A stretch of 64,000 nt of DNA from Acidimicrobiaceae bacterium (GTDB lineage: Bacteria > Actinomycetota > Acidimicrobiia > Acidimicrobiales > Aldehydirespiratoraceae). The stretch is taken from the NCBI GenBank assembly GCA_028819005.1, contig JAPPMP010000032.1, positions 11,236-75,235 of the forward strand, given 5' to 3'. This document shows, in pieces, positions 25,280-49,825 of the stretch. Under the pieces are notes generated by a model. That model did no database searches, had not been told where the DNA came from, and worked only from the letters and a program-made list of their open reading frames with translations. Numbering within the stretch: position 1 is the first letter of the stretch; the number at the start of each line of letters is the position of its first letter. Both the position numbers and the translations under genes were made by a program.

Positions 25280-26441
25280 CAGCGACGAGACCGCATTGGA
25301 ACGAGAGCGTGATTTCCTGTTCGTGTCGCTCGCGGATCTTGAAGCCGAGCATGCGGCAGGCAATTTGAAAGAAGCCGATTTTGCGAAGCTGAGGTCGCAT
25401 TATGTGGCCCGTGCTGCAGGCAGCATTCGGGCACTTCGAGCGGCTGGCGGTGAGGCCGGCGCCGATGAGCGGCACGCCGAGGCGCCCGCACGAAGTGCGA
25501 GGTCGTGGCGCCTGGTCGCGTTGTGGGTGCTCGGCATCGGGCTCGTGGCCACCGTGGCCGGAGCGACCTTGGCAGACTTCTCAGGTAGTCGGGGGGCCAC
25601 TGGTCAGCTGACAGGCGGCATCCGTGAGTCGGTTCGCTCACGGCTCTTCGATGCTCGTGAGGCGACCGGTGATCAGGATCCGGACCGGGCGATCGCGATC
25701 TACGACGACGTGCTGACCGATGAGCCGTCGAATGCTGAGGCGCTGGCCTACCGAGGGTGGCTGACATTTCTCTCCGGTGACGCACTGTTGGCCCGCGACT
25801 TCGTCGAAGAAGCGGTCGCGGCGGATCCGAGCTTTCCCGATGCTCGGGTTTTCGCCGCTTCTCTGGCTCTCTCGGCGGGAGAGCCGCTGGTCGCCGGCGA
25901 TCATCTCGACGCCTTCGAGCGGATCGACAGCCCGTCGTTCATTTCCCAACTCGTTGAATCTCAACAACTCGACCTGAGGGTTGCCGAGGCGGCGGGACCC
26001 GCGGCTGTGTCGCTGGTTGCGCCATTGCTCCAAGGCGCTGCCTACGATCCCGCGGAGATACCGGTGCGCCATGTGTCTGTCGCGGCGGATCATCTGGCTG
26101 CGACGGGTCGGCTTGAAGACGGGCTGGCGCTGTTCAGCGCGATGTTGTCGAGTGCGGGCGACGATCCCGACGTGCTGGTTGAACTGGCCTGGTTCTTGGC
26201 CCGCGCCTCTGTCGGGGTTGAAGCGGGGATGGCCGCCGCGGGTTCCTACCTCGACGCGGTGATCGAAGCCGACCCGACCCGTCCCGACGCCTTGGTTTAT
26301 CGTGCCATGGTGCGTTTCCAGCTTGATGACCGTCAGGGCGCCGCGGCTGATCTTGCCGCTTACGACGCTGCGGAGGTGGTGCGCCGCGATCTGGATCGGC
26401 TAATTTCTGAGACCGAACTGCGCGATGTGCTTGCTGAGTAG
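25272..26441 (+). CDS. ccmI: TPR-repeat protein in the CcmI position
   Basis: Start at 25260 or 25272, overlapping the ccmH stop. It has one TM ('LVALWVLGIGLVATVAG') followed by TPR-like repeats. Confidence 0.55.
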   Translation: MPDSDETALERERDFLFVSLADLEAEHAAGNLKEADFAKLRSHYVARAAGSIRALRAAGGEAGADERHAEAPARSARSWRLVALWVLGIGLVATVAGATLADFSGSRGATGQLTGGIRESVRSRLFDAREATGDQDPDRAIAIYDDVLTDEPSNAEALAYRGWLTFLSGDALLARDFVEEAVAADPSFPDARVFAASLALSAGEPLVAGDHLDAFERIDSPSFISQLVESQQLDLRVAEAAGPAAVSLVAPLLQGAAYDPAEIPVRHVSVAADHLAATGRLEDGLALFSAMLSSAGDDPDVLVELAWFLARASVGVEAGMAAAGSYLDAVIEADPTRPDALVYRAMVRFQLDDRQGAAADLAAYDAAEVVRRDLDRLISETELRDVLAE

Positions 26442-26445
26442 CCCT

Positions 26446-28626
26446 ATGGACCGTTTGCGAAACCTCGATCTTGGCCGTGTTGCGATCCTGTTGTTGCTGG
26501 TGATCGGCACCGCGGCGCTGTTTACCCGAGACCAGTGGGACTGGTTTTTCGCCTCGGACGAGCCACAGACGGAAGACGTCACCGCTCCTCAGATCGAAGT
26601 CGCCGATGTCGATCTGGCAACGGAGCGCTTGTACAGGGTCAGTCCCGACAACGGCTCTGAGGTCAGCTATCGGGTTCAGGAGCGGCTTGCCGGCAGTCAG
26701 CGGGTGACGGTGGGCGCCACAACGGTTGTGGCGGGCGACATCAAGGTCAATGTCGTCGACCCGAGCCTCTCGCACGTTGGTGAGATTGTTGTCAACGTCG
26801 AGATGTTCGAATCGGATTCGACCCTGCGCGACAAGAGGATCCGCCACGACTTCCTGGAGTCGACCCACTGGCCGTTCGCCCGCTTCGCCCCTGCGATGAT
26901 CGAGGGTCTTGATTCCGTGTTCGCAGACGGCGCCAGTTATGAGGTTTCGATCACCGGCGACTTGACCGTGAAGGAGACCACCCTCGAAGAAACGTTCACA
27001 GGCACTGTCACAGTCGGCCCCGACCAGCTCATTGCGTCGATGTCTGCGACAGTGCTGAGCAGCAGCTACGACGTCGGCCCCATCAACATCGCCCGTCTGG
27101 CACACACCGACGACGAAGTCGAGTTGCTCTTTGAGCTCGTCGCGGATCGAGTGGACACAGGTTCGTCTTCCAGGTCGGACTTGGAACGCGAGCTCCCCGC
27201 CTTCGAGGTTGCGGGTGGTGCGTTCGCCGCCCACGTTCAACCGATCCTGGAAACCCGATGCGTGTCGTGCCACACCGCGGGCGGCCCGGGTTGGAGCACT
27301 CTGGCCTTCGACACCGCGGGCCAGGCCGCCGAGGTGGCTGAAGACATCGCGCTGGTGACGCAGATTCGTTTCATGCCTCCTTGGCTGCCATCGGACCTGA
27401 GTCCGGCGTTCGAACATGACTGGTCGCTGAGCGATGAGGAGATCAGCGTGATCAACGAGTGGGCGAGGGCCGGCGGCGGGCTCGACGTCGCGGTCGACAC
27501 TCCCTTGGTCGCTCGGGTGCAGGCTGTGCTGCCGATCGAGGAGGACCAGAAGATTCCGCCACGGGACGGGCCCTACACGGGCTATTCCGATGCCGACGGC
27601 AATCCGGTCAAAGCTGACGACTACCGCTGCCAGGTCCACGAAGTCAGCGACCCCGAGGGCGACGGCAACTGGGTCAAGGGGTTCGAGTTCCGACCGGATC
27701 AGACCTCGGTGGTCCACCACGCGATCGTCTACAGAGTTCCTGCCTCCGCGGCAGCTGAGGTCAAGGCCAAGATCGCCGCCGAGGACCGGATCGAAGCCGA
27801 TTCGGGGCTTTCGGATGAACCGGGTTGGACCTGTTTCGGGTTGTCGGGCCTCTCCTCGCAGGAGGTCTATTCGATTCAGGGTTGGGCGCCAGGACAATCG
27901 CCGACCATCTACCCCGATGGCTACGGCGTCTATCTCTACCCGGGCGACATGATCGTCAACCAGATCCACTATCACTACGACCACGACACGCCTGCCGACG
28001 GTTCGTGGATCATCCTCGACACCGCCGATCCAGCCGAGGTTGCCGCGGGATTGACCCATATCACCGGGTCCTCGTATCTGACTCCGGCCGAGGTGCCGTG
28101 TACGCCTGAGGAGTCCAAGGCCGCTCAACAACGCGCTCAGACCATCGACGGTTACGTGAACCTCTGTGTACGTGAGAACGTGCTCAAAGAGATCGGCGAG
28201 AAGTACGACCAATTCGCCACCTTCATTCCTGATGCCCTGCTGCAACGCTGTGGGGGAACAGTCGACGACTACGACGACCTCGACGGCTCGGTCGGCTACA
28301 GCTCGTGTGACATGAGAGCTCGGAACCCGGGAACGATCCACACGGTGCTCGGGCATATGCACGAGTTCGGCGCGGCCTACCGGATGACTCTCAACCCCGA
28401 TACTGCCGAAGAGCGAATCCTGCTCGACATCCCGGTCTGGGATTTCGAGTGGCAGCTCAACTACGCCCCGATCGAGGACATCCGCATAGACACCTCAGAC
28501 ATTGTGCGGTTCGAGTGCTGGTGGGACCGCACCCTCAAGTTCATGCCGGAGCCTCGCTACATCACTTGGAACGAGGGAACGGTCGACGAGATGTGTTTCT
28601 CGTCGATCTCAGTCCTGCCCGACTAG
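26446..28626 (+). CDS. membrane-anchored fusion: YceI-like domain + single CxxCH heme-c motif + PHM/DBH-like copper type II monooxygenase domains
   Basis: N-terminal TM segment. YceI-like segment ('YRVQERLAG...GDLTVKETT'). Heme-c motif 'CVSCH'. Copper-ligand-like motifs 'VVHHAIVY', 'QIHYHYDH', 'GHMHEFG' and 'DEMCF'. Confidence 0.7.
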   Translation: MDRLRNLDLGRVAILLLLVIGTAALFTRDQWDWFFASDEPQTEDVTAPQIEVADVDLATERLYRVSPDNGSEVSYRVQERLAGSQRVTVGATTVVAGDIKVNVVDPSLSHVGEIVVNVEMFESDSTLRDKRIRHDFLESTHWPFARFAPAMIEGLDSVFADGASYEVSITGDLTVKETTLEETFTGTVTVGPDQLIASMSATVLSSSYDVGPINIARLAHTDDEVELLFELVADRVDTGSSSRSDLERELPAFEVAGGAFAAHVQPILETRCVSCHTAGGPGWSTLAFDTAGQAAEVAEDIALVTQIRFMPPWLPSDLSPAFEHDWSLSDEEISVINEWARAGGGLDVAVDTPLVARVQAVLPIEEDQKIPPRDGPYTGYSDADGNPVKADDYRCQVHEVSDPEGDGNWVKGFEFRPDQTSVVHHAIVYRVPASAAAEVKAKIAAEDRIEADSGLSDEPGWTCFGLSGLSSQEVYSIQGWAPGQSPTIYPDGYGVYLYPGDMIVNQIHYHYDHDTPADGSWIILDTADPAEVAAGLTHITGSSYLTPAEVPCTPEESKAAQQRAQTIDGYVNLCVRENVLKEIGEKYDQFATFIPDALLQRCGGTVDDYDDLDGSVGYSSCDMRARNPGTIHTVLGHMHEFGAAYRMTLNPDTAEERILLDIPVWDFEWQLNYAPIEDIRIDTSDIVRFECWWDRTLKFMPEPRYITWNEGTVDEMCFSSISVLPD

Positions 28627-28831
28627 CCGAAATGAACAATTCTTTCTTGCCCGTTCAGATTTTCACTAGGAACCCACCCCAGATATCTGCAAGCCATAGC
28701 CTTCGAGTGCAGGCTCCAACACCACACCAACGTCCCAGGCACAACCGCTAACCAAGTCCGATTTTTTGGAAATCACACCTAGGGTTGTGTACCGGACTCG
28801 ACCAACGACTTCATATCAAGGAGGTGAATCG

Positions 28832-30442
28832 GTGCGGATAGGACAAGATGCAATGAATGCTGCCCTCGGAGATCTTCGGGGACTCCGATGGAGCACCAAA
28901 TTCGTCTCGCTGTACGAGTCGTTCCTCGTGGCAAAGTGGTTAGAACGTCACGAGCGGTACCCGGGCCCGCCGTCGGTTGAGGATGCTAACCAAGCTGTGG
29001 CGGAACTGTTCGTCTTCGATCCCAGCCATGCGAATGGACGGCTGAGCGCGTTTCGTTACGACTGGAAGCTCGTTGACGCGTCGGGACGCAAGACCGTTTG
29101 GAACAACACAACTCGCTCCCCGACGGTTGCAACCTCAATCTTTGTTGATGGTGACATCCGTTATGGCCTCCGGCCTGATGCGACGATAGTCATGCGGCAG
29201 CACCTCCAACACTTGGAGTTGCCGAGCGCTCAGGCCCTAGCCTGTCTTGTTCTTAGAGATCATGACTTTCCGCCGACGGCGCATTGGGACGACGCGCTGG
29301 ATCTCCTCCGAGACTCCCTTGGCCTCGACGAAGTGGATCTCTCCCGGATCACGGCACAACGCGAACTAAGCCCCCGCTTGTTACTGTCGGGTACCGAGTG
29401 GTCGATTGCGGGACTGCCCGAGAGTCTGGCTCCTCCTTCGCTTGTGGCGGTAGCAGCACTGTCAGCGACCGGCGAGTCTGAAGACGACATCATCGTCAAT
29501 TCTCGGACGGCGCGAATGCTCCGAACTGCGGTCATGAATTTCGCGTCGGTCTTGCTCGTCGGCCCACCCGGGACAGGCAAAGGGCGTTTGGTGCGATGGT
29601 TGGCCGAGGAGGTCCGTATCAACCCCGTCAGCTTCGGTTTTGCCGAAGGAACGGACCCGAACCCGATGTGGAGGACTCCCGACGAGAGTTGGTCGGCGTT
29701 TGAGATGATTGGAGGCCTTGCGCCGAGGGACGGCGAACTTGCATGGTCTAACGGACTCCTCCTGAACAGCTTGGCCGAGCAACGCTGGCTCGTCCTCGAC
29801 GAAACAAATCGAGCAGATATGGACAAGATCATGGGACCGTTGCTCACGTGGCTTGCCGAGCAGGAGGTGGAGATTGGTCGAACCGCAGCTCACGGCGGAC
29901 ATCCGATCGTGCTCGGTTGGAGTCGCGAATCTGCAAACGCTGCGATCGACCCCTCTGGTGTAGGGGAACCAACCACCTTCGTTGCAGGGACGAACTGGCG
30001 TTTACTCGGCACATATAACCCACAGGACGCGCAGCGTGTGTTCCGCTTCGGTCAGGCTCTGTCGCGTCGGTTTACTACGGTACCGGTCCCGGCGTTGAGC
30101 CCGGGAGAGTTTGAGTCACTGCTCGTCTCGCGATTCCCGGGGCTGGGCGATGATGCCAAGGCGTCGATAATCGGCTTGTACTCGGCGCACCACGTTAGCG
30201 CTGAGACAGTCCTAGGACCGGCCGTGTTCCTGAGGATGGGATCATACCTGAGGAATGCCGATCCAACGCAGAGCACCGAGGAACTCATCGCAGAGGCTTA
30301 CGTGTTGTCACTCGGGAAGTACATAAGTTCTTTCGATGATTCTGACTTTGATGACCTTGGTCGCCGCGTCCTAGACGAAGAAGCGGTTCTTAGTAAGGCA
30401 CAATGGGATTGGGTGGAGGAGCAGAGGGAGATCCTCGGTTGA
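28832..30442 (+). CDS. McrB-family AAA+ (AAA_5) NTPase with unrecognised ~250-aa N-terminal domain
   Basis: GTG 28832 lies 7 nt after a perfect AAGGAGG. Walker A 'GPPGTGKG', Walker B 'WLVLDETNRADMDK', and McrB-like 'LLGTYNPQDA' and 'ALSRRF' motifs are present. Confidence 0.8.
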   Translation: MRIGQDAMNAALGDLRGLRWSTKFVSLYESFLVAKWLERHERYPGPPSVEDANQAVAELFVFDPSHANGRLSAFRYDWKLVDASGRKTVWNNTTRSPTVATSIFVDGDIRYGLRPDATIVMRQHLQHLELPSAQALACLVLRDHDFPPTAHWDDALDLLRDSLGLDEVDLSRITAQRELSPRLLLSGTEWSIAGLPESLAPPSLVAVAALSATGESEDDIIVNSRTARMLRTAVMNFASVLLVGPPGTGKGRLVRWLAEEVRINPVSFGFAEGTDPNPMWRTPDESWSAFEMIGGLAPRDGELAWSNGLLLNSLAEQRWLVLDETNRADMDKIMGPLLTWLAEQEVEIGRTAAHGGHPIVLGWSRESANAAIDPSGVGEPTTFVAGTNWRLLGTYNPQDAQRVFRFGQALSRRFTTVPVPALSPGEFESLLVSRFPGLGDDAKASIIGLYSAHHVSAETVLGPAVFLRMGSYLRNADPTQSTEELIAEAYVLSLGKYISSFDDSDFDDLGRRVLDEEAVLSKAQWDWVEEQREILG

Positions 30443-31653
30443 TTGATCCAGTTCTTCCGCGCTCCGGGCTTGATGAGTTGACCCGGGGGTGGATTGGCGA
30501 CGGAGACCTGCTCCGGGCCGTTGCGGCAAGCCGAACTGACGAGCACAGTTGGAGTGAGCGCGACGTTCGTCACCGCGGCCAGCGAAACGCGCTCGCTCAG
30601 TTTGCCGATGATCTTGTGAGATTGCCCAAGAGCGAACGCGAATGGGCCGATGCGTTGCCCGCGGAGTCGCGCGTGGCCAAGACAGTCTCGATGGTGCCAT
30701 CGGGAGGGATTCGATGGTCCGAAACAGCTCGTCGCCACGGCTGGCCTCCTTCGGCTTTCGCCCTACGGCACCGGAGTCGCGTAACCGACGAGACAGCGCT
30801 AGCGGCGCTTGCGTGGCTCGCAATGAGGTTGGACGAATTCAGGCGCGCCTGCCGGAGCAGTCCCACCCTGCTAAGACGGATCGAACCGCCGATCTCAGCG
30901 ATGTTTCGAGCCGTGGCGCATCTGGAAGAACCGAACCCGGTGCAACCCGACCGAACCGATTTACGCTCGTTGCGTTCCTCTGGGCAACCCTGGTCAGTGG
31001 TTTCGCGGATCGCTGCACTTGTGACGCGTGTTGACGATGATCCGGCATTTATTGCATTCGAACTCCTATATCCGGAGCCTGACTTGGCGTCCCGTCTCTT
31101 TCACCTGAACGTCTTCGGCGAGGTTCTACGAGCTCTCCGCAGCGCTGGATTCCGGTGTATGTGGCGATCTCCGATCGGAGGGGTACGCACTGGTCCGAGG
31201 CTCCAGTGCGTCGATACTCACGGCCTAATCTTCGACCTCTGGTTTGAGGCTGCTGGGTCGCGGAAGCACTACGCATTAGACGACGGTGCCTATGTACACG
31301 CGACCCGCAGTATCAGTGGCGCCGGTGGCCCGATCGGTGCTGATATCGCACTGGTATGCGAAGCCCGCAAAGCTGTCCTCCTGCTTGAGTGCAAATGGTC
31401 ATCCGACCCGTCGTATGTCGCGCGTGACGGGTTTCATCAAGCGGCGAGCTACGCTCTGGACGCACGGGACGGCTTCGCCGAGAGAGTCTGGTCATTCGTC
31501 GTCGGTCCCGCCGAGATCATCCCTGAGCCGAACGTGGCAACACGGTTGGAGGGCCGCTCCATCATCCTAGGCTCAGTCTCTTGCGATCATGTGCCCGCCC
31601 TAGTCACCGCCTTCGGTTCACTCAGCCCACTGGCAATGTCCATGTGGCGTTAG
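30439..31653 (+). CDS. McrC-like partner with C-terminal PD-(D/E)xK nuclease motif
   Basis: TTG 30439 overlaps the upstream TGA (TTGA); ATG 30403 is an alternative start. The motif 'GADIALV...(13 aa)...LLLECKW' gives D...ExK. Confidence 0.6.
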   Translation: MIDPVLPRSGLDELTRGWIGDGDLLRAVAASRTDEHSWSERDVRHRGQRNALAQFADDLVRLPKSEREWADALPAESRVAKTVSMVPSGGIRWSETARRHGWPPSAFALRHRSRVTDETALAALAWLAMRLDEFRRACRSSPTLLRRIEPPISAMFRAVAHLEEPNPVQPDRTDLRSLRSSGQPWSVVSRIAALVTRVDDDPAFIAFELLYPEPDLASRLFHLNVFGEVLRALRSAGFRCMWRSPIGGVRTGPRLQCVDTHGLIFDLWFEAAGSRKHYALDDGAYVHATRSISGAGGPIGADIALVCEARKAVLLLECKWSSDPSYVARDGFHQAASYALDARDGFAERVWSFVVGPAEIIPEPNVATRLEGRSIILGSVSCDHVPALVTAFGSLSPLAMSMWR

Positions 31654-32974
31654 AGAGCTTCTCCTTGGCCGCCGACACGTATGTCTGCGAAACGTCGAAA
31701 CCGATGAACCGGCATCTGTGATGTAGCGCGGCGACGCCGCTCGTGCCCGCTCCAACGAATGGATCAAGTACAAGGTCGCCAGCCTCTGTCGTCAGTGCGA
31801 TACACCGACCCGGCAGTGCCATCGGGAATTGCGCGCCGTGCCCTTCGCCGCCGCTCGACGTGTTCAGCATCCAGACATCAGAGAGCTTCTCGGACTCCCA
31901 CCCGTTGTTGCGTCCGCCGTATCTGGGTTCAGCCGTAATGTACGGAGCACGGGAGAATTTTGGCCTTCGCTGCCGCGTGAGGTGGATGACGTATTCGAGA
32001 TTCCGGCTCACTCGTGAATTCTGCGGCTCCGGGAGGGTCGCGCGCTTAGCCCATGTGATCATCGTCTTTACCCATAGACCTGTTCGACTGGCTCGCTCGG
32101 CGATCCGTGCAGGAATCATGCACTGCTCGCCATCCTTGAGGTAGGCGTGACCCGCCGAGTATCGCCTAGCGGGATGATCCGCCCAAGCTCGATGGTCCAG
32201 TCCTTGCATCGCGCGGAGCGCCTCGGCAGCGTTTCCCCGGATCTGAGTTCGAGTGTTGAACGAGTCCATGACATTCCACCAGATGGACCCGTCGGACGTC
32301 ATCTTTGGTGCCAACGCGACCAAGATCTCGACGGTGTGTCTGATGAATGCCTCAGGTGTCTGCTCGTGGCCGTATGCACAGATGTCACCGTCAGCCCAAG
32401 GAACTTGGCTGGAGTCTTCGTAGATTCGCAGACCCCAATAGGGTGTGGATGTGACGGCGCAGTTCACTGATTGATCAGGCACTTGGCATAGTAGGTCAAG
32501 TACGTGGCCTACACGAAGATCGTAGTTGTCTGGATTAGGGATCTCCGATACTTCTTGGTCGGACTCGGCACGCTGAGTCAGATGGTCGAGTATGCGGCTT
32601 CGAGGTACATACGTTTCGCAGAATGCGTCTTGGTCAAGAAGTCTGATGATGTCGTCGGCTAGGAAGTTGTCGCGCTTTCCTGTAACTCGGAAAGCGAAGC
32701 CAGACGAGAAGCCCACAACCGGTAAAACAAGGTGCGCTCCGAAGGACGACTGGCTTGAAGCGTACGCGGCGCGGTCGAGTGCCCGCACTGGTGTGCGAGG
32801 CTTAATATCTGGAAGCTGTTCTGAAACGGCGGCATCCGGCGATGGACTGCGGTCATCGCGTCCGTAGCGGTCGGGCGCCTGTACTGTTGTGTTGGTGTGT
32901 GTGCTCGGGCTTGACGGCAGTGCAGCGCCGGGTCCGGGCAGCAGACCGTCGTCGAGCGAGTCGTCTGGCATCAC
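31622..32974 (-). CDS. beta-class N4/N6 DNA methyltransferase with ~150-aa N-terminal extension
   Basis: Motif IV-like 'VTSTPYW' sits upstream of the AdoMet motif I 'DLVLDPFVGAGTSGVAA', preceded by 'GAQFPMALPGRCI'. The 3' end overlaps the convergent nuclease gene by 32 nt. Confidence 0.85.
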   Translation of the reverse strand: MMPDDSLDDGLLPGPGAALPSSPSTHTNTTVQAPDRYGRDDRSPSPDAAVSEQLPDIKPRTPVRALDRAAYASSQSSFGAHLVLPVVGFSSGFAFRVTGKRDNFLADDIIRLLDQDAFCETYVPRSRILDHLTQRAESDQEVSEIPNPDNYDLRVGHVLDLLCQVPDQSVNCAVTSTPYWGLRIYEDSSQVPWADGDICAYGHEQTPEAFIRHTVEILVALAPKMTSDGSIWWNVMDSFNTRTQIRGNAAEALRAMQGLDHRAWADHPARRYSAGHAYLKDGEQCMIPARIAERASRTGLWVKTMITWAKRATLPEPQNSRVSRNLEYVIHLTRQRRPKFSRAPYITAEPRYGGRNNGWESEKLSDVWMLNTSSGGEGHGAQFPMALPGRCIALTTEAGDLVLDPFVGAGTSGVAALHHRCRFIGFDVSQTYVSAAKEKLSNATWTLPVG

Positions 32975-33086
32975 GACCCATACCGTACTCAGCTACTATG
33001 GCGCTCTCGCGGATCACCCACTAGATCCGGCTTACGCGTGCCGAAATCGGTCGAATTCTAGGCGAGGTCCGTGGACTCTAGGCCGA

Positions 33087-34058
33087 TTAAGCTCGTTCGG
33101 TGAGGCGGTCGAGTCCCGCGCGGAAGAAATCGAGAGCGGTCTGCACGGCGTCGCCGGCGCCGACCAGCGCTGCGTAGGGGAGTGAAGCGCCGTTGAAGGC
33201 GGTCTCGTTCCAGTAGGGATCGCTGCGGTCCACGTCTCCCCACGCTCCCACATACAGGTAGGGCTCGTCGTGGGCGTCGTCGCCGGGTGAACAGCCGTAG
33301 GTGGCGCGCCCGCCGGCTTCGACGTCGCCGATCGCCGCGGCCGGGTCGAAGTGGCCGGGCCAGAGCTGGGTTCGTTCTGCGTCTACCGCACCGGGCGTGA
33401 CCCGCAGTTCTTCGAGCACCGCCCAGGAGAATCCGAACCAGTCTGCGAGGAAGGCACCGGTCGAGCCGGTGGCTCCGAGGTCGGCGTCCGGATCGCCCAA
33501 AGGCGGTGAGTCATGTTCGGCCGCGGCGATGCCCGGTTCCACGCCGACGAACTGAGCGGCGGCTTGCAGGCTGGTTATGGCGCTGTGTCTGACCTGTGCG
33601 CCCTGCTGAACCACCAGCAGGCCGTCCTGCACCCGGACCTGTTGGTCATCGCCGAAGAACGGGGTTCCGAAACCGCCTCGGGTGTAGCGCAGACCGAACT
33701 TTGTGTTGGAGCAGCGGCGGGCTTCGGCGACGACGGCATAGGCGAGCCGATGGTAGGCATTGCGAGCTTCGCGATAGCCGTCTGGAACCGGGTTGAGCGG
33801 CCGGTATGCGGCCAGCCAGCGTTCGGCGGCCCAACCGGCCAGTTCGGGCCGCTCTGCGACCACCTGGGCCCAGGTGCGGTCGGCAGCGCTGGTCGGACCG
33901 ACGGTTGCAGCTGCATCTGTAGGGATCGCCGCTGGATCGTCGGCGAAGAACGGCTCAGTGTGGTCGGCGGGCGGCGACGGCTCCAGGACCAACGCGGTGA
34001 CAGCTCCGCCGAGTTTGGCGCTTGCTTCAACCGCCGGGTTCAGATGTCGGACAGTCAT
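33087..34058 (-). CDS. hypothetical protein
   Basis: 323-aa ORF with high-GC codon usage like the core genome. No motif was recognised. Confidence 0.5.
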   Translation of the reverse strand: MTVRHLNPAVEASAKLGGAVTALVLEPSPPADHTEPFFADDPAAIPTDAAATVGPTSAADRTWAQVVAERPELAGWAAERWLAAYRPLNPVPDGYREARNAYHRLAYAVVAEARRCSNTKFGLRYTRGGFGTPFFGDDQQVRVQDGLLVVQQGAQVRHSAITSLQAAAQFVGVEPGIAAAEHDSPPLGDPDADLGATGSTGAFLADWFGFSWAVLEELRVTPGAVDAERTQLWPGHFDPAAAIGDVEAGGRATYGCSPGDDAHDEPYLYVGAWGDVDRSDPYWNETAFNGASLPYAALVGAGDAVQTALDFFRAGLDRLTERA

Positions 34059-41752: not shown

Positions 41753-42721
41753 ATGGGACTCGAGAAGATCTGGGTGTTCGGTGAAGCCAACGGCGACGCT
41801 GTAGCCACAATCACTCTGGAAATGCTGGCCAAAGCCCGCGAGATCGCCGACACCGTCGAGGTGTTCATGGGCGCCGACGGTGACGACTACGCGGAAGAAC
41901 TCGGCGACCACGGCGCTGAGACCGTCTACGCCACCGGTGACCTTGATGGAGCCATGCAGGGGGTTTCGGTTGCCGCCGCGGTCGCCGAGGCGATTCAAAG
42001 CGGTGACGTGGATGCGCCCGCTGCGTTCATGCTCGGCACCACCCAAGACGGGCGTGATGTTGCCGCCCGCTTGTCGGTCAAGCTCAGTTCGCCGGTCATC
42101 ACCAACATTGTCGATCTCGTCCTTGAAGGCGATGATCTGCTCGGCAGCGAACCGATTTTCGGTGGGGCGACCGATGTGATGACCAAGAACACCTCGGGCA
42201 ACCCGGGGATCTTCCTGGTCAGGCCGAAATCGTTCGTGGCAGAGCCTGTGGGCGGTGCTGAAGCCGATGTTGAGGACCTCGACGTCGGCGAGCTCGGTGC
42301 AGTCGGCGCCGCGCGAGTAGTTGCCACCTTCGCCGAAGAGTCGGACGGCCCGAAGCTTGATGAAGCCGACATCGTCGTCTCGGGCGGCCGCGGGCTCGGC
42401 GACAAAGAGGCCTATTCGATGATCGAGGACCTGGCCAACGCCGTGGGCGCTGCTCCTGGCGCCAGTCGTGCCATCGTCGACGCCGGTTGGGTTCCCTACA
42501 GCTATCAAGTTGGTCAGACCGGCAAGGTTGTGAAACCGACGGTCTACATTGCCTGCGGCATATCCGGAGCAACCCAGCACCTTGTCGGTATGAAGGGGTC
42601 GAAGAACATCATCGCCATCAACAAGGATTCCGAGGCGCCCATCTTCGCTGTTGCGGATCTCGGCATTGTGGGTGATGTCCACAAGGTTCTCCCCAAGCTG
42701 ATCGAGGCGCTCAGCAACTGA
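41753..42721 (+). CDS. etfA: electron transfer flavoprotein alpha subunit
   Basis: The ATG is preceded by GAGGGAGGA. FAD-binding C-terminus '[16 protein letters not shown]'. Confidence 0.9.
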
Positions 42722-42846
42722 TCGGTCGCCTTGCGGCTGCAATCTCGGGGCGTTATCGGCTTTTGTCATTTATGACAAAATGCACAGACTTTTCCACATC
42801 TGTTGACTAGTGCCGGTTGGATGGCGGTTGTTGAAGCTAGGTCCCA

Positions 42847-42992
42847 GAGGCCGAGCGGCCTGGTGGGCGCAGCGAACAAAGAGCGGGAGACGATGAGGCC
42901 CGAGCGGCCTGGTGGGTGCAGCGAACAAAGAGCGGGAGACGATGAGGCCCGAGCGGCCCGGTGAGCGCAGCGAACAAAGAGCGGAAGACAAC
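42847..42992. repeat. 48/49-bp tandem repeat, 3 copies (GAGGCCCGAGCGGCCTGGTGGGTGCAGCGAACAAAGAGCGGGAGACGAT)
   Basis: Copies lie at 42847-42894, 42895-42943 and 42944-42992. The third copy contains GCGGCCCGGTGAGCG, identical to the core of the 39.8-kb repeat. Confidence 0.95.
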
Positions 42993-43030
42993 GTATCGCG
43001 ACTCTAAGGCTCACCTGTTCTGCTCGCTCT

Positions 43031-43780
43031 TCAGACCAGTGGCCAGGGCCAGCGGTGTCGGTTGCTGTCGCCGTGTGGGAAGGTTCCGCTGGTGGCCAGG
43101 GCCTTGGTGCGGGTGAGCATCGCGTCCTGTTCCAGCGGGTCGAGGAGAGCCGCGACCTCCTCGGGTATTCCGCCCTCGATCAGCCCCCATAGGTCCGCCC
43201 TCAAGCGCTCTGGGAGTGGTTCTCCCGCGAAGTCCCACAGCACTGTGCGGAGTTTGAACTGGTGATGAAATGCAAGACCATGGTCGATCGCCCAGATCCG
43301 GCCGTCGGTTCCCAGCAGGCAGTGCCCTGATTTTCGATCGGTGTTGTTGATCACCAGGTCGAGCGCGCAGATTTGCCGGAAGGAGTCGTCGTAGCGGTCG
43401 CTGGACTCGTGCAGCGTGAAGTAGTGCTCTTCGAATTCATGGGGGACGAAGAGTTGCAGTGCCCCCGTTTCGAGAGGTGCGTCGTCTCGCACGACGGTGG
43501 GAGGAACCAATTCCCAGCCGAGACACTCGGCGATTAGGAAGGCTGCGACCTCCCTTCGATACAGCCCGTCCGGGAAGTCCCAGAGCGGGCGCTCTCCTTG
43601 AAGCGGCTTGTAGATCGCCTGCGCTCGGAGTCCTTCATGGCAGAGATTGACGAGGAACGTCGCATTGGATGAGTACGGCATCCGCCCGACGAGCTCCATC
43701 TCGCTGTCACGGAGCAGCGTCAATGCCCGTTCAGCGCTGATCGGCTCGCGATCAAAAATCGGCGACTCGTTCTCGCTCAT
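43031..43780 (-). CDS. SCO1664-family protein (PI3/4-kinase-like fold family, function unknown)
   Basis: 249 aa with 'YSSNATFLV', 'AIYKPLQGERPLWDFP' and 'LVINNTDRKSGH'. It is part of the conserved trio with DUF3090 and a phosphomutase-like gene. Confidence 0.7.
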   Translation of the reverse strand: MSENESPIFDREPISAERALTLLRDSEMELVGRMPYSSNATFLVNLCHEGLRAQAIYKPLQGERPLWDFPDGLYRREVAAFLIAECLGWELVPPTVVRDDAPLETGALQLFVPHEFEEHYFTLHESSDRYDDSFRQICALDLVINNTDRKSGHCLLGTDGRIWAIDHGLAFHHQFKLRTVLWDFAGEPLPERLRADLWGLIEGGIPEEVAALLDPLEQDAMLTRTKALATSGTFPHGDSNRHRWPWPLV

Positions 43781-43787
43781 CTAGCCG

Positions 43788-43935
43788 CCCGGTATGCGCC
43801 CGGCGCGGTTCCGGTTCCGGCCCGGTATGCGCCCGCTGCGGTTCCGGTTCCGGTTCCGGCCCGGTATGCGCCCGCTGCGGTTCCGGTTCCGGTTCCGGCC
43901 CGGTATGCGCCCGCTGCGGCTCCGGCTACGCCCGG
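43788..43935. repeat. 39-bp tandem repeat, about 3.7 copies (CCCGGTATGCGCCCGCTGCGGTTCCGGTTCCGGTTCCGG)
   Basis: Copies lie at 43788-43820 (short), 43821-43859, 43860-43898 and 43899-~43935. The array lies inside the DUF3090 / SCO1664 operon gap. Confidence 0.95.
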
Positions 43936-43964
43936 CGCAAACAGAGGGCCCGGCGTTAGCAGAG

Positions 43965-44459
43965 TCAGTTTTGGCACGGGCACCAGTCGCCGTTGCGGGT
44001 TTCAAGCGGTTGACCGCAGTACAGGCACGGCGGTCGCCCCGCCGCAACGATCGTGCGGGCGCGTCCGACGAGTCCTGCAACTTCGCCTCGCTGCAGGAAG
44101 AAACGGGCTTGGAACGGTTCTTGGTCGTCGTCATCAACGAACGATTCCGCCACGACGACGAGACGGTCGATCTCGCCGGCGTATGCGATGGCAAGACTGG
44201 CGACAGTCCACTCAGCCACGACCGGCTCCCGCAGGTCGAGGTCTTGGGGCGCGTCTGTGGTTTCGCCCGCCTTTTCAGGTAGTTCCTTCAGCACGCGGTC
44301 CAGGTATTCGGCGAGTGCCGCCACCTGCTGTTTCTCGACTTTCAGCGATACCAGCCGACCTTCGCTGCGGGCTTGGAGGAAGAACTCTCGTTGGCCTCTC
44401 GGGCCGAGCGTTCCGACGGTGAGAAAGTCGAGTTCTCGAAAGTCGAAGGAGCGGTTCAT
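43965..44459 (-). CDS. DUF3090-like protein
   Basis: Start at 'MNRSFDFRELDFLTVGTLGPRGQREFFLQA', overlapping the upstream stop (ATGA). The C-terminus has a zinc-ribbon-like 'CLYCGQPL...WCPC'. Confidence 0.75.
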   Translation of the reverse strand: MNRSFDFRELDFLTVGTLGPRGQREFFLQARSEGRLVSLKVEKQQVAALAEYLDRVLKELPEKAGETTDAPQDLDLREPVVAEWTVASLAIAYAGEIDRLVVVAESFVDDDDQEPFQARFFLQRGEVAGLVGRARTIVAAGRPPCLYCGQPLETRNGDWCPCQN

Positions 44460-45103
44460 GACAGCACCAGGGTTGTGAGGTCGTCGCCCGTCGAGTTGAC
44501 GGTCAACACGATAGGGCCTTCGGAGGTGTAGAGAATCGCAGTGATGGAGCAAGGAGACACCACGATGCGCTGGAACAGGTCGAGGTGGGTGCCGGTTGCT
44601 GCCGCGATGACTGCTTTGATGACGTCGGCGTGCGACACGGCCACGATCGTCTCATCGGGGTGGGCCGCGACGAGACCGTGGACCGCGTCCAGGGCGCGGC
44701 TCTGCATCTCGGCGAATGATTCGCCGCGGGGAAATCGGAACCCGCTCGGATAGCGCTGGACCCTCTTCCACTCTGGCAACTTGGCGAGATCGTCGAGTTT
44801 GCGTCCGGTCCATGCCCCGAAGTCGCATTCGATCAGTCCAAGGGACCGTCGCACGCGCAGTTTCAGTGCTCTGGCGATCGGTTGTGCGGTCTGTTGTGTT
44901 CGCTCCAGCGGCGAGGCGTACACCGCGCCGACAGAGTCGAGCGCGGCGATCCGTTGTGCCGCGGCTTCGGCTTGGGCTGTCCCTTCATCGGCGAGATGGA
45001 GGCCCGGCGCTCTGCCTGGCAGCGAAGCTCCCGTTGTGGGTGTCTTTCCGTGACGCACGAAAAGCACCAGAGTCGGTTTCGGGGTGTCTGATTTGGGGGC
45101 CAT
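44456..45103 (-). CDS. histidine phosphatase family protein (MSMEG_4193-type putative phosphomutase)
   Basis: 'LVLFVRHGKT' RHG motif and 'AVSHADVIK'. Confidence 0.75.
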   Translation of the reverse strand: MAPKSDTPKPTLVLFVRHGKTPTTGASLPGRAPGLHLADEGTAQAEAAAQRIAALDSVGAVYASPLERTQQTAQPIARALKLRVRRSLGLIECDFGAWTGRKLDDLAKLPEWKRVQRYPSGFRFPRGESFAEMQSRALDAVHGLVAAHPDETIVAVSHADVIKAVIAAATGTHLDLFQRIVVSPCSITAILYTSEGPIVLTVNSTGDDLTTLVLS

Positions 45104-45128
45104 GGCTGTTGCACAACGTACTCTGTGA

Positions 45129-45851
45129 GTGATGCGATCACCCGATCCGAGTTCTGGCGCCCCGGATGATCAGATTACGGGGCTTGACCAGATTGAGAGT
45201 GAGGTGGTTGAGTGCCGCCGGTGTCCTCGGCTGGTTGAGTGGCGTGAACAGGTTGGACGCATCAAGCGTGCTGCGTACCGTGATGAGCAGTATTGGGCTA
45301 GACCGGTGCCCGGTTTCGGCGACCCCGAGGCTCGTTTGCTGGTGCTCGGGCTGGCCCCCGCGGCCCATGGCGCCAATCGCACCGGACGCATGTTCACCGG
45401 TGACCGCTCCGGTGATTGGTTGTATCGGGCGTTGTGGCGCGCCGGTTACGCATCCCAGGAGTCGTCGACGAGTCGTGATGACGGCCTGACATTGTCGGGT
45501 GCTTGGGTCACAGCGCCGGTGAAGTGTGCGCCTGTGGCCAACAAACCGACGCCGGAGGAGCGTGACAATTGCGAGCCGTTCCTGACGGCTGAACTGGCCG
45601 CGCTCACCTCGGTCAAGGTCGTTGTGGTGTTGGGAGGTTTCGCGCACAATGTGATCTGTCGGCACTTCGGACTTCGACCCCGTCCCAAATTCGCGCACGG
45701 TCGGGAGATTCCTCTCGACAACGGAATGACCTTGCTTTGCAGTTTTCATGTGAGTCAGCAGAACACCTTCACTGGCCGCTTGACCGAGACCATGCTCGAC
45801 GCAGTCTTTGCTCGCGCCCGTGAGTTGGAGACAAGAGGATGCACAATCTGA
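45129..45851 (+). CDS. uracil-DNA glycosylase, family 5 (UdgB-like, Fe-S)
   Basis: 'CRRCPRLVEWRE' and 'GLAPAAHGANRTGRMFTGD' motifs. Confidence 0.8.
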   Translation: MMRSPDPSSGAPDDQITGLDQIESEVVECRRCPRLVEWREQVGRIKRAAYRDEQYWARPVPGFGDPEARLLVLGLAPAAHGANRTGRMFTGDRSGDWLYRALWRAGYASQESSTSRDDGLTLSGAWVTAPVKCAPVANKPTPEERDNCEPFLTAELAALTSVKVVVVLGGFAHNVICRHFGLRPRPKFAHGREIPLDNGMTLLCSFHVSQQNTFTGRLTETMLDAVFARARELETRGCTI

Positions 45852-45894
45852 GTATGCAACTTGCAAATTGTGCAATTGCTGATAGGTTTATATC

Positions 45895-47577
45895 ATGATT
45901 GAACGGGTGATCACCGGACAGTTGACGAAGTTGTTTCGCCAATACCCGTTTGTGACGGTGACCGGACCTCGGCAAGCGGGCAAAACGACGCTCTGCCGTT
46001 CAACATTTGGAGATGCGGCATACGCCAGCCTCGAAGCCCCTGATGAACGCGCCTTCGCAGAAAGCGACCCTCGAGGGTTTTTGCGCCATCTGGGCACTCC
46101 CGCGATCATCGACGAAATACAGCACGTGCCTGCGCTGTTGTCCTACTTGCAGGTCATTGCCGATGAGGACGGCCGCAACAGTCTCTATGTGCTGACAGGA
46201 AGCGAGAACTTGAAGCTGTCCGAGGCAGTCGGCCAGTCGCTCGCCGGACGTACTGCGCTGCTGCGTCTTCTGCCTTTCTCGCTCGACGAATCCAGACGCG
46301 CAGGCGCGAGCGAAGCATTTGCCGACATCGTTTTCAACGGCTTCTACCCGCGCATCGCGGATCAGCGACTGGAGCCTCGCCAAGCGCTCGGCGATTATTT
46401 TGAGACGTACGTCGAACGGGATGTGCGCCGCATGGGAGGGGTCAGTGATCTGTCTGTATTCAGGCGGTTCGTGGCGCTGTGCGCCGGACGGGTGGGACAG
46501 ATGTTGAACCTGACGGCGCTCAGCGGTGATGCAGGGGTGTCGCACACGACGATTCGCCAGTGGGTCACTCTGCTGGAGCGCAGCTACATTGCGTTCTTGC
46601 TGCCGCCCTTTGCAGCGAACATTCGCAAACGGCTGGTCAAGTCCCCGAAGCTCTACTTCTACGATGTGGGACTTGCCAGCTACCTGTTGGGCATCGAGGG
46701 TCCGGGTCAAGTGGCGACGCATCCATTGCGCGGTTCGCTTTTTGAGAACGTCGTCATCGCCGAGGCGGCAAAGCACTGTTACAACCGGGGCCGCGAACCC
46801 CGGCTTTCGTTCTTCCGCGACTCGCGTGGCCTCGAATGCGACCTGTTCTACGAGACTGAGCGAGGGGTCAACGGCATCGAGGCTAAATCGGGCGTGACGA
46901 TCGCATCAGACTGGGTGCGTTCGCTCGACCGAATCGCCGAACTCGTCCCGGACTTGGTTGGCAAAACGGTTGTCTATGGTGGAGCCAAGGCTGAGGCGCG
47001 AGGCGGATGCGACATAATGCCGCTCGGGCAGTTCGACGAGGCACTGGGCAACTTCGATGCGGATGTAGCGGTTCGGGTTGCCTGTGGTGGCACCCCCGTC
47101 GCCGGCGTGGACGTCCTTGCGCTGTTCCCCAACAATGTGTGGCAGCGCGCGACGAGCGACGTCGCAGGCGTCGCGCGGCTCAAGCTGTACACGACGGACC
47201 TTTCCATGACTGTCTACGCGGCCGGAGAGGGACTGAGCGCCAAGATCGTCAGCGATTGGGTTCCCGCGCGGGGTTCGCTGGAGGTGGAACTCGATGTTCT
47301 CGTCGACGGCGGCTCGGTGATCTTTGCGGACCAAACAGGTTACGTGCCCGGTATCGAGGGCCGCCTCAATCCGATTCTTGACGTTGCACAGCGAACGTAC
47401 CTGTACACCACGAATGTTGCAGTCAACGGGGGCCTGGCGCAGCCCGTCGATTTCTCGGTCGGTGAAGATGTGCTCAACCTCGTCGATGCCCACGGAAACG
47501 AGCGCGACCTTCGGGTCGTAGCCATGAGCGGCCAATCGGCCTTGCTCGAGTACGGCCTGCCCTCCAAGTTGGCCTGA
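45895..47577 (+). CDS. AAA+ ATPase with DUF4143 domain and an extra ~170-aa C-terminal extension
   Basis: Walker A 'GPRQAGKTT'. The DUF4143-type body runs to about aa 385, followed by a beta-rich tail ('VRVACGGTPVAGVDVLALF...'). An AT-rich leader precedes the gene (45852-45894). Confidence 0.8.
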   Translation: MIERVITGQLTKLFRQYPFVTVTGPRQAGKTTLCRSTFGDAAYASLEAPDERAFAESDPRGFLRHLGTPAIIDEIQHVPALLSYLQVIADEDGRNSLYVLTGSENLKLSEAVGQSLAGRTALLRLLPFSLDESRRAGASEAFADIVFNGFYPRIADQRLEPRQALGDYFETYVERDVRRMGGVSDLSVFRRFVALCAGRVGQMLNLTALSGDAGVSHTTIRQWVTLLERSYIAFLLPPFAANIRKRLVKSPKLYFYDVGLASYLLGIEGPGQVATHPLRGSLFENVVIAEAAKHCYNRGREPRLSFFRDSRGLECDLFYETERGVNGIEAKSGVTIASDWVRSLDRIAELVPDLVGKTVVYGGAKAEARGGCDIMPLGQFDEALGNFDADVAVRVACGGTPVAGVDVLALFPNNVWQRATSDVAGVARLKLYTTDLSMTVYAAGEGLSAKIVSDWVPARGSLEVELDVLVDGGSVIFADQTGYVPGIEGRLNPILDVAQRTYLYTTNVAVNGGLAQPVDFSVGEDVLNLVDAHGNERDLRVVAMSGQSALLEYGLPSKLA

Positions 47578-47638
47578 GCGCCTAATGTGCGGTTCGCGTC
47601 ACCAAAATGCGGTCAGCTACCGCTAGTCTCGCGGCGGC

Positions 47639-48001
47639 ATGACTCGTAGAAAAAATCCTCAGTCCAATCGGCGCGTGGGCATGATCGGCCTTGTCCTGAT
47701 CTGCCTGGTTGTGTTTGCTGCAGGTTGCGCTTCCAACAATGACCCGGACAATTGGGAGGAGGCGATAGCAGACGGCACGCTGGAGGAGAACTTCATGCGC
47801 TCCTGTCAAGAGGCGAACGAGGGCGGCGGCCTGACCGAATCCGAGGCCGTGTCCTACTGCGAATGCGCTTTCGACGGATTGGCGCAGCGTTACGCCGATG
47901 ATTTCGACGACTTCAAAGACGCAGAGAAACGTCTGCGCAACGACCCCCAGGACATCGACCCCGCGGTGCGCGCGCTTCTTGAGAGGTGCGTTCCGACGTA
48001 G
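47639..48001 (+). CDS. small lipoprotein
   Basis: Lipobox 'LVVFAAGC' after a basic N-terminus, with four further Cys. Confidence 0.55.
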   Translation: MTRRKNPQSNRRVGMIGLVLICLVVFAAGCASNNDPDNWEEAIADGTLEENFMRSCQEANEGGGLTESEAVSYCECAFDGLAQRYADDFDDFKDAEKRLRNDPQDIDPAVRALLERCVPT

Positions 48002-48033
48002 TGCCGCTAGTCGTGTTCGGACGAACCGACAGT

Positions 48034-48648
48034 TCAGGGGCGGGGGCCGAATTCGGGGCGTTCGGTGCGGGTGCGCTTGAGTTCCCAGAATCCGTCGATG
48101 TTCATCATCGTGACCAGGGAGTCCCACATGTCCAGGGAATCCTCAGTTGATGGGACTCGAGTGATGACGGGACCGAAGTAAGCCTGCTTTTCGCCGTGTC
48201 GGTTGTCGAAGGCGATGATCGGAGTGCCGACGTCGTCGCCGCAGAGTTCCAGCCCTGCGTCATGGCGTTGCACGATCTCGGCGTCGAAATCCTCGGAGTT
48301 GTAGGCCGCGGCGTGTGAAGCGCCGAGTCCGACGCTCTCAAGTGCTTCGGCCAGGTCGAAGCCGAATTCCTGATCGTGGTGGATCCGTCTGCCGTATTCC
48401 CAGTACAGGTCGAAGACCGCGTCCTCGCCCTCAGCGGCGCGCACTGATTCCATCACCCGCAACAGGCGGTAGGTGCGGTTGGTGGGCTCGTAGAAGGGAG
48501 AGTCTTCATCGGGCTGGTTCTTCAACAGGAGACTGATCGGTTGCCAAGTGATGTTGAGGTCGCGGGCCGGTTTCACTTCGTCGACGACCCAACGGGCCGT
48601 CACCCAGCACCACGGTCAAATTGGGTCCACCCAGAACTCGATATCCAT
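48034..48648 (-). CDS. DsbA-family oxidoreductase related to Rv2466c/mycoredoxin-2, with in-frame TGA (48616-48618) at the first Cys of the CPWC motif (selenocysteine candidate or nonsense pseudogene)
   Basis: Read from ATG 48648, the translation is MDIEFWVDPI-TGA-PWCWVTARWVVDEV..., continuing into ORF 48034..48603. The C-terminus 'DDVGTPIIAF...FGPVITRVP...FWELKRTRTERPEF' matches the Rv2466c family. A hairpin lies 14 nt after the TGA. Confidence 0.6.
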
Positions 48649-48652
48649 GCTG

Positions 48653-49825
48653 TCACCCCGCAGGTTCGGCCGAAACGGTCACCTTAGCGGCGGGTTGGGC
48701 CCAGTCGGGCCACCGGTCGCGGCTCTTGCGGGCCAGTTTGTGCATGAGCGCGATCGCCCCGGGGTCGTCGTCTCCGGGCCTGGTCTCGATCACGCCGTCG
48801 GCTGCCATTGCGCTGATGACGGCACGTCCGAGCTCGGTGCGAACGATCGTGAGGGTCCAGTCGGTGAGCTCGCCGATGCCCCCGGTTGAGATGTCGGCGT
48901 GTTCGGCGGCGAAGTCGGGGCACAGGTGGCAGCCCTCGCGGGTCCAGGCGTGGCACTCCTTGAGGTTGATCTCGTGGTAGCCGCCGTCCTTGGTCCAGAT
49001 CTGGAAGACGCCCTTGATGTTCATCTTGGAGATGTTCTCCTTGGGGAGGCCGTATTTGACCTCGAACAGTTCGTCGAAGAGGGAGTCGTCGAATGATTTG
49101 GAGCAGAGCAGGCCGATGTTGAGCTTGATCGGCTTGGAGACCTTGCCGACCTTGCGATGCCACATCACCGGCGCAACCGATGTCTGGCAGCTCATGCCCA
49201 CGAGGGCGAGGCGCTCCAAGCCCTTCTCTCTGGCTTCGTTGAAGGCCATGGTGTTGGCTGAGTAGGTGTAGCGGCTACCCGCGCCCCTCAGCACCTCGTC
49301 TCGGTTCGTGGCGACCATGGGGAACGCTTTCCAGCCGGGTTCTCCGTTGGGAAGGTTCTCCACGCCGCTGGTCAGCGCCCCGTCGATGACGTCGTTCTCG
49401 ATGCACCAGATGAGGATTGCCGAGACCAAGCCCCCGTCTTGGCCGGTGTCGTACACGAAGTCGTCTGTGGCGCGGGTGAGGAGAATGTCGGAGTAGACGC
49501 CCGACACCTCCTCGGGATCGCGTTCGCGACCGAAGAGGTGCATGTCGGCTTCCGGTTCCCACATGCGGAAGCGGGGACATGCCCGGGTGCATGAGGTGCA
49601 GCCCTTCTGCCCGTGGATGCAGTCGTCGAGCCCCAGCTCTTCTTCGAGGTGGAACGGCGTGTATGCGCCGGGCTCGTGTTCGTAGCCGATCACGTCGTGG
49701 GGGCACGAGATCACGCATCCGGCGCAGCCTGTGCAGAGTCCGCTGGTGATCACCTCGTCGAACAGCTCTTTCCACTGGTATGTCCAGCGCGGTTTCTTCG
49801 CCGGGGGTGCTTGGGCGGCGGCCAT
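48653..49825 (-). CDS. FrhB-family protein (coenzyme F420 hydrogenase/dehydrogenase beta-subunit family) with N-terminal 4Fe-4S motifs
   Basis: 'CTGCAGCVISCP' and 'CTSCTRACP' ferredoxin motifs followed by an FrhB-like body. Confidence 0.7.
   Translation of the reverse strand: MAAAQAPPAKKPRWTYQWKELFDEVITSGLCTGCAGCVISCPHDVIGYEHEPGAYTPFHLEEELGLDDCIHGQKGCTSCTRACPRFRMWEPEADMHLFGRERDPEEVSGVYSDILLTRATDDFVYDTGQDGGLVSAILIWCIENDVIDGALTSGVENLPNGEPGWKAFPMVATNRDEVLRGAGSRYTYSANTMAFNEAREKGLERLALVGMSCQTSVAPVMWHRKVGKVSKPIKLNIGLLCSKSFDDSLFDELFEVKYGLPKENISKMNIKGVFQIWTKDGGYHEINLKECHAWTREGCHLCPDFAAEHADISTGGIGELTDWTLTIVRTELGRAVISAMAADGVIETRPGDDDPGAIALMHKLARKSRDRWPDWAQPAAKVTVSAEPAG

Follow-up and report, generated by a model that had tools for sequence, protein, structure and literature searches.

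We describe a three-gene island in a 64,000-nucleotide (nt) stretch of contig JAPPMP010000032.1 of an Acidimicrobiaceae bacterium, referred to below as the window. The island occupies window positions 28627-33086 (about 4.5 kb), with both flanking genes lying outside it, as established from the open reading frame (ORF) listing and from comparison with relatives. Its genes encode an McrB-like AAA+ NTPase (R1), an McrC-like nuclease partner (R2) and a beta-class DNA methyltransferase (M). This trio is probably a nucleoside triphosphate (NTP)-dependent, methylation-protected restriction-modification (R-M) system built on an McrBC chassis, of the kind known from LlaJI. Judged by its sequence, it is an McrBC-type R-M variant with a putative new reader domain and with clear signs of cassette exchange. 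The argument is carried by the domain identities and conserved catalytic residues of the products, by the linkage of the methylase gene to the other two, by the co-segregation of the N-terminal domain of R1 (N-domain) with the methylase, and by an insertion for which the empty site is present in close relatives.

Products of the three genes

The first-pass annotation, made from the letters of the sequence, had proposed three ORFs: an McrB-type NTPase recognized by four motifs and preceded by an AAGGAGG-N7-GTG start, a PD-(D/E)xK partner whose TTG start overlaps the NTPase stop, and a convergent beta-class methylase with a 32-nt 3' overlap. The three ORFs lie where it had placed them, and each of these descriptions was borne out by the evidence given in this section.

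R1 (28832-30442, plus strand, stop codon TGA at 30440-30442) is a 536-residue protein with an AAA_5 domain (Pfam, 3e-11). A Shine-Dalgarno sequence, AAGGAGG, can be read at 28818-28824 on the plus strand, 7 nt ahead of the GTG at 28832, and R1 homologues begin at an identical MRIGQ. There are 572 homologues of R1. In 30 of them the motifs GPPGTGKG, LDETNRAD, GTYNPQDA and ALSRRF are invariant or nearly so, with the Walker B DETNRAD, the NxxD loop (N-P-Q-D) and the R-R-F arginines invariant. A profile of these 30 homologues matches Escherichia coli McrB across the whole AAA+ domain (7.5e-6); midasin outscores McrB in the same search solely by adding up six AAA_5 units. The HHalign comparison of R1 with E. 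coli McrB (probability 96.5%, E 1e-9) pairs DETNRAD with DEINRAN, GTYNPQDA with GLMNTADRS, which is the NxxD consensus loop, and ALSRRF with ALRRRF. The features of an McrB-type AAA+ protein, namely a Walker B of the form DExNRA, an Nx(x)xD loop and RRF, are all present in R1, except that its Walker A reads GKG and not GK[ST]. In this motif (residues 244-251, window 29573-29596, GPPGTGKG-R), Gly replaces the Ser/Thr that follows the lysine. The Gly is kept in at least 90% of the R1 clade (30 homologues), whereas the sister clade linked to C5 methylases has the canonical GKT or GKS. The adenylate-kinase-like GKG loop probably explains the NCBIfam adk matches of R1.

In the AlphaFold2 (AF2) model of R1 (mean predicted local distance difference test, pLDDT, 86.5), the N-domain comprises residues 1 to about 200 and the AAA+ motor those from about 220 to 536, with a low-confidence linker at about 205-220 between them. 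The N-domain is mainly helical and confidently modelled. It has no match in Pfam or the PDB, and a homologue search with the N-domain by itself returned four short fragments, which carried no information on architectures. We regard it as a putative DNA-recognition module, a role that is predicted.

R2 (30439-31653, plus strand) is a 404-residue McrC-like nuclease, in which the AF2 model, Foldseek and residue conservation point to an N-terminal finger, formed by a long beta-hairpin, and a C-terminal PD-(D/E)xK domain. The in-frame TTG at 30439 sits within the R1 stop, which gives a 4-nt TTGA overlap. Because the same 4-nt overlap between the two genes is annotated in loci L006, L094 and L096, this TTG is preferred, and it is likely to be the start of R2 rather than the ATG at 30403; more distant R2 homologues start at the equivalent residue. 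R2 residues are numbered here from the ATG at 30403. The AF2 model (pLDDT 87.7, predicted template modelling score 0.80) was compared with known structures by Foldseek. The top three matches were McrC chains of E. coli and Thermococcus (6hz4_M at 5e-8, 6ut6_G and 6ut7_G; E 5e-8 to 2e-5, probability 1.0), and the fourth-best was a model of BsuMI YdjA-YdiS. The long beta-hairpin lies at residues 87-96/119-128, and the loop between its strands contains the invariant W105, R110 and W114. Across 30 homologues, W280, E282 and K331 never vary, and at least 90% of the sequences retain D278, D314 and E329. The D314...E329-x-K331 set (E329-C-K331 in R2 itself) is located in the C-terminal alpha/beta domain. 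The McrC architecture of a finger and a PD-(D/E)xK domain encoded directly downstream of the NTPase is thus present in R2 on the basis of structure alone.

Sequence searches gave no name to R2. No match was found in Pfam (E up to 0.1), NCBIfam or PADLOC, sequence and profile searches of the PDB gave chance matches only, and R2 falls outside the Pfam families McrBC, DUF2357 and RE_LlaJI. A tblastn search of plasmid and phage collections was likewise negative. The silence of PADLOC on R2 is uninformative, since E. coli McrC, used as a positive control, is also unmatched by any PADLOC model. R1 stays below the PADLOC REase_II models, which E. coli McrB, again as a positive control, does match.

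M (31622-32974, minus strand) is a beta-class N4/N6 DNA methyltransferase (Pfam N6_N4_Mtase, PF01555, 1e-30; 107.7 bits, with the gathering cut-off at 26.7) of 449-450 residues, depending on whether it starts at GTG 32974 or ATG 32971. PADLOC matches it to MTase_II (9e-45) and makes no system call here beyond this methylase. The motif IV TSTPYW (residues 175-180) precedes the motif I DPFVGAG (residues 404-410), which is the beta-class order. Orthologues of M in other trios are 54-79% identical to it, with motif IV invariant. Relatives of M in the PDB include both N4-cytosine and N6-adenine enzymes of the beta class; motif IV has a Ser at its first position, which may point to N4-cytosine. M and R2 are encoded tail to tail with a 32-nt 3' overlap (M stops at 31622, R2 at 31653), and a comparable overlap of 26-36 nt is found in other Acidimicrobiia loci. 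M also has a conserved N-terminal extension (PDIKPRTP...LLDQDAFxETxVPRSR; residues about 55-135, window 32570-32812, minus strand), which has no family match and may act as a domain for DNA binding or autoregulation.

Methylase linkage and the N-terminal domain of R1

At least five unrelated genomic contexts, from Acidimicrobiia, Gordonia and Micromonospora, contain the trio in intact form. In L001/L002 it is found beside DDE transposases, and in L010-12 within a defence island. The Gordonia loci (L003-5) have it beside Wadjet genes with the methylase gene divergent, and the remaining contexts are the window itself, L006-8 and the Micromonospora loci L092-93. At all loci that were examined, across classes, the methylase gene lay next to the other two, while its orientation varied. 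The neighbours of the trio in L010 (4228-7715) are a C5 methylase, a 1141-residue ORF, a helix-turn-helix protein and a SLFN_AlbA_2/HATPase_c_4 protein. In Gordonia L003 (11626-17283), genes for a ParA-like ATPase and for Wadjet components resembling JetB/JetC lie next to it.

Two sets of loci bear on the question of what the N-domain of R1 belongs to. In Conexibacter arvalis and Actinomycetospora callitridis, the R1 motor is 39-42% identical to that of the window, and the alignment begins only at about residue 200. The same R2 family is kept there, the N-domain has no similarity to that of the window, and the methylase is a single C5 enzyme accompanied by Vsr. To our knowledge, Vsr is retained only where 5-methylcytosine is actually made. 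The reverse combination is found on a plasmid of Rhodococcus fascians (L097, NZ_CP049751; 2564-5772), which encodes a methylase 62% identical to M. The ATPase encoded next to this methylase shares the N-domain of R1 over residues 52-258, including SGRKTVWN. Its P-loop module is different and has no AAA_5 match, its sensor region LNVDAE is possibly an NxD variant, and the next gene is a different 455-residue ORF with PD...DAK, for which the PLSDB table gives partial annotation only. Since an unrelated N-domain occurs with the C5 methylase and Vsr, and the same N-domain occurs with the same methylase on another motor, the N-domain, in the sequences compared, co-segregates with the methylase and not with the motor.

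It is tempting to speculate that the N-domain (about 200 residues, signature SGRKTVWNNTTR) represents a new DNA-reader family, sequence-specific and sensitive to methylation, which would move between genomes as a cassette with its cognate beta-class methylase and would have been joined to two or more different McrB-type motors. In turn, other cassettes, such as a C5 methylase with Vsr, would be accepted by the motor-nuclease pair. We put this forward tentatively, as a possibility with slightly less than even chances. If it holds, Actinomycetota would harbour a considerable class of NTP-dependent R-M systems that are modular and have escaped annotation.

A further plasmid locus was noted in the course of these comparisons. 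On the conjugative plasmid pB of Paenarthrobacter ureafaciens (L098, NZ_CP094491; 917-7117), two methylase genes are divergent from a 654-residue AAA_5 ATPase and a 281-residue hypothetical ORF. This locus resembles a further R-M arrangement of the McrBC type that lacks annotation.

The insertion and its surroundings

Orthologues of the 733-residue gene upstream of the island were found in 79 genomes of Acidimicrobiales, Acidimicrobiaceae or 'Candidatus Aldehydirespiratoraceae', and none of the 79 related genomes keeping both flanking genes carries the island. These syntenic loci were screened by ORF listings and by degenerate-motif DNA searches, in which a degenerate codon probe for GTYNPQDA matched all 14 of the fetched loci from the window's beta-methylase-linked clade and 0 of the 79 syntenic loci. 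In the nearest relative, L013, the orthologue of the 733-residue gene is 95% identical and ends 14 nt from the stop of the orthologue (88% identical) of the 323-residue downstream gene, and the genes beyond (154, 238, 415 and 521 residues) are ordered as in the window. L014 (92%) has the same empty arrangement with a spacer of 153 nt. Because the island is absent from 79 syntenic genomes and the flanking stops are 14 nt apart in the nearest relative, we conclude that the segment is a true insertion, probably acquired horizontally. The first-pass annotation had called the segment an island and had raised the question of whether it is an indel between the monooxygenase gene and the gene at 33087-34058. 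The empty site in L013 and L014 answers this in the affirmative, and the segment is thus not conserved core.

The left junction was placed by DNA alignment with the empty sites immediately 3' of the TAG stop (28624-28626) of the 733-residue gene: the alignment to L013 and L014 breaks off right after ...CCCGACTAG. The same junction is found in L009, a 5.4-kb contig with a 94% identical NTPase, and is common to the window and L009 only. From here, a non-coding leader of 205 nt (28627-28831, plus strand) extends to the NTPase gene. Its GC content is 0.498. The leader is conserved in close relatives only, and a consensus scan found no sigma-70-like promoter in it. The right end consists of 112 nt located 5' of the methylase gene (32975-33086, minus strand), as defined by the alignment with L013 and L014. 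Homology with the empty sites returns at about 33073-33086, just ahead of the TAA stop (33087-33089) of the 323-residue gene. It had also been stated that no integrase or flanking repeat explains the arrival of the island, and this is essentially right. We found no integrase, and the ends of the island show no long flanking repeats and no inverted repeats beyond chance-level matches; the insertion site contains neither a tRNA gene nor an Rfam element. The sole exception is a lone imperfect duplication of about 10 nt, with GACTAGCCGA (28621-28630) at one junction and GACTCTAGGCCGA (33074-33086) at the other, which could be a chance match.

The GC content of the island is 0.591, compared to 0.604-0.646 in equal-sized segments elsewhere in the window; the two lowest equal-sized segments (0.602 and 0.604) overlap the island. 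The contrast is genuine yet modest. It is blurred on the left side, where the GC content of the flanking gene is about 0.60-0.61. The original description of a lower-GC island therefore stands as far as the difference itself is concerned, and the figure of 65-70% given for the DNA outside was too high on the left. Two further low-GC stretches (0.604-0.616) are located at window 42371-51290 and 55751-60210, close to tRNA-Arg (49912-49984) and tRNA-Pro (56352-56428).

The flanking 733-residue protein (window 26425-28626, plus strand) is a fusion of a YceI-like part, a region with cytochrome-c motifs and a Cu-monooxygenase-like part, the Pfam matches of the latter two being sub-threshold. In about 80 genomes of Acidimicrobiales, its gene keeps a place beside ccm genes. 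The closest relatives of the flanking genes are in metagenome-assembled genomes labelled Acidimicrobiaceae or 'Candidatus Aldehydirespiratoraceae', for example SB0670_bin_1 (95% identity).

Proposed mechanism, rival explanations and known systems

The proposed mechanism takes the following form. M would methylate a specific host motif, and the N-domain of R1 would read this motif in its unmethylated state on incoming DNA. The McrB-like AAA+ domains would assemble into a ring, and the R2 finger would dock into this ring and stimulate NTP turnover and DNA translocation, as in McrBC, where the McrC finger inserts in the ring to the same effect (PMC7680126; bioRxiv 10.64898/2026.08.31.748284). The PD-(D/E)xK domain of R2 would then cut the foreign DNA. 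R1 and R2 would be translationally coupled via the TTGA overlap, and the convergent M gene with its overlapping 3' end may tune the ratio of restriction to modification. Binding to unmethylated sites, translocation, cleavage and the nucleotide used are parts of this scheme that we infer. As for the state of the DNA that is read, a reader always found with one writer must read the site of that writer, and reading its methylated form would be suicidal. Co-segregation of the two is expected if the N-domain is the target-recognition module for its own methylase, and such a reader is tolerable only when blocked by methylation, which is the R-M logic of LlaJI and not the logic of a type IV system.

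Several points weigh against this reading. The resemblance of R2 to McrC is structural only, and the template modelling scores are low (0.26-0.31), probably as a result of how the domains are oriented in a two-domain model that has a flexible hinge. The HHalign comparison of the R2 profile with E. coli McrC was not significant, with a single match on the catalytic D...DAK segment. The AAA+ fold of R1 is slightly nearer to the MoxR-type NorQ and CbbQ (about 1e-9 in Foldseek) than to McrB (about 1e-6). The N-domain is a predicted reader, and its binding to DNA is putative. The atypical Walker A suggests that nucleotide handling may be unusual. For all members of the family, functions are predicted from sequences and models. 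Finally, one methylase leaves an asymmetric site hemimethylated, and the scheme would need a palindromic site, unless hemimethylation suffices.

The first-pass annotation had offered two versions of the trio, a LlaJI-like R-M system or a type IV enzyme accompanied by a methylase whose mark does not provoke it, and the former is now clearly the better supported. In the latter, the trio would be an McrBC variant attacking foreign modified DNA, and its methylase would be a tolerated companion or would serve another purpose, orphan or regulatory. Canonical McrBC is indeed modification-dependent, R1 and R2 resemble McrB and McrC, and the recent McrBC census describes the methyltransferase association as 'surprising for a Type IV system', leaving its meaning open (PMC11090510). 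However, the methylase is adjacent at every examined locus, across classes and orientations. The N-domain switches with the class of the methylase and stays with the same methylase on another motor, neither of which is predicted by a hitch-hiker model. Moreover, none of the modified-base readers SRA/DUF3578, YTH or EVE/PUA was detected in R1 by Pfam searches. At the examined loci, therefore, we found neither of the features of a type IV system, which are the lack of a cognate methylase and the presence of a modified-base reader, and we consider this explanation improbable. It is also unlikely, if a little less so, that the trio is a methylation-protected R-M system in which the AAA+ protein acts as a nucleotide-binding scaffold or switch that brings R2 to R1-bound sites, rather than as a translocating motor. 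This would account for the absence of the Walker A Ser/Thr in at least 90% of the clade, and purified R1.LlaJI had no detectable GTPase activity in vitro (PMC1459862). The Walker B D-E pair, the Asn of the NxxD loop equivalent to sensor 1 and the R-R-F arginines are, however, invariant, which argues for selection on hydrolysis. Furthermore, adenylate kinases work with a GKG P-loop, using it for hydrolysis and transfer.

The least probable of the explanations, in our view a very remote one, is that R1 is an AAA+ chaperone of the MoxR type whose partner is unrelated, and that the two came to lie beside an orphan methylase by chance and have no role in DNA targeting. The label 'MoxR-like ATPase' is attached to relatives of R1 in the sources, the best Foldseek matches of R1 are the MoxR-class NorQ and CbbQ, and there is a sub-threshold match to the Pfam family bpMoxR. 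Against this, the partner has an McrC fold with a PD-(D/E)xK site and no VWA domain, the linkage to a DNA methylase is kept over phylum-level distances and through rearrangements, and the neighbours are often defence or mobile genes. Three named systems were also considered and rejected: a MoxR-VWA pair, for want of a VWA partner; a BREX or DISARM fragment, in which a PglX/PglZ partner would be expected and was not found; and IetAS, which lacks its protease partner here, the PADLOC IetA matches to R1 spanning the P-loop only.

Our preferred reading, an NTP-dependent and methylation-protected R-M system, places the trio in a field with few characterized examples. McrBC-derived restriction of unmodified DNA is known from Firmicutes and Helicobacter, in the form of LlaJI, LlaI and BsuMI. 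The trio had been called undescribed, and this claim holds in part. The association of McrBC with methyltransferases was noted in the 2024 census (PMC11090510), and LlaJI, LlaI and BsuMI have been characterized. The family, its N-domain and its partner, on the other hand, are nameless in Pfam, NCBIfam and PADLOC, the last of which matches the methylase only and does not name the trio as a system. We found no description of the trio family, which occurs in Actinomycetota, in the literature. The gap in annotation is considerable, as the 320 clusters (50% identity) that make up the R2 family are labelled 'hypothetical protein' alone. The family offers a putative new reader domain, and the exchange of cassettes between motors amounts to a natural experiment on why type IV-like machines often accompany methylases. 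In Gordonia and Micromonospora, which are cultured genera, such a system would be a barrier to transformation.

The closest entry in the census of Bell et al. (2024) is the methyltransferase-associated NxxD branch, in which an McrB-like NTPase with an NxxD loop is linked to a predicted DNA methyltransferase (PMC11090510). According to the same census, the association with methylases is prevalent in all branches and possibly ancestral, and its analysis was deferred. With the McrBC of E. coli and Thermococcus, the trio shares the Walker B DExNRA, the NxxD loop, the RRF motif, the McrC fold and the order of B followed by C in overlapping genes. In contrast to the trio, with its linked methylase and unrelated N-domain, McrBC has no cognate methylase, and modified bases are read by SRA-like or YTH domains. 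The sequence similarity of R2 to McrC is also below detection.

LlaI and BsuMI are three-gene, site-specific McrBC homologues protected by methylases, and their motors are reported to be nucleotide-promiscuous (bioRxiv 10.64898/2026.08.31.748284). As with LlaJI, it is unmodified sites that they cleave, and they depend on their methylases (PMC1459862, PMC12707154, bioRxiv 10.64898/2026.08.31.748284). They differ from the trio in having a separate DNA-binding R1 and a bare-motor R2, whereas in the trio reader and motor form one 536-residue polypeptide and the restriction arm has two genes. LlaJI, known from plasmid pNP40 of Lactococcus lactis and from a Helicobacter pylori homologue, is the closest known system to the trio. 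It differs in having two C5 methylases, an asymmetric site and co-directional genes throughout, as opposed to one beta-class amino-methylase in convergent or divergent orientation. Its N-domain is a B3-type beta-barrel, while that of the trio is modelled as mainly helical and has no family match. The R2 of the trio is not matched by the Pfam families RE_LlaJI or McrBC, and the Walker A of its R1 is atypical. What the two have in common is the overall architecture, in which an N-domain, site-reading in LlaJI and predicted to be so in the trio, is fused to an McrB-like motor (R1) and paired with an McrC-like PD-(D/E)xK partner (R2); both are compact, mobile and operon-like, and cognate methylation protects the host in LlaJI, as it would in the trio (PMC1459862, PMC12707154).

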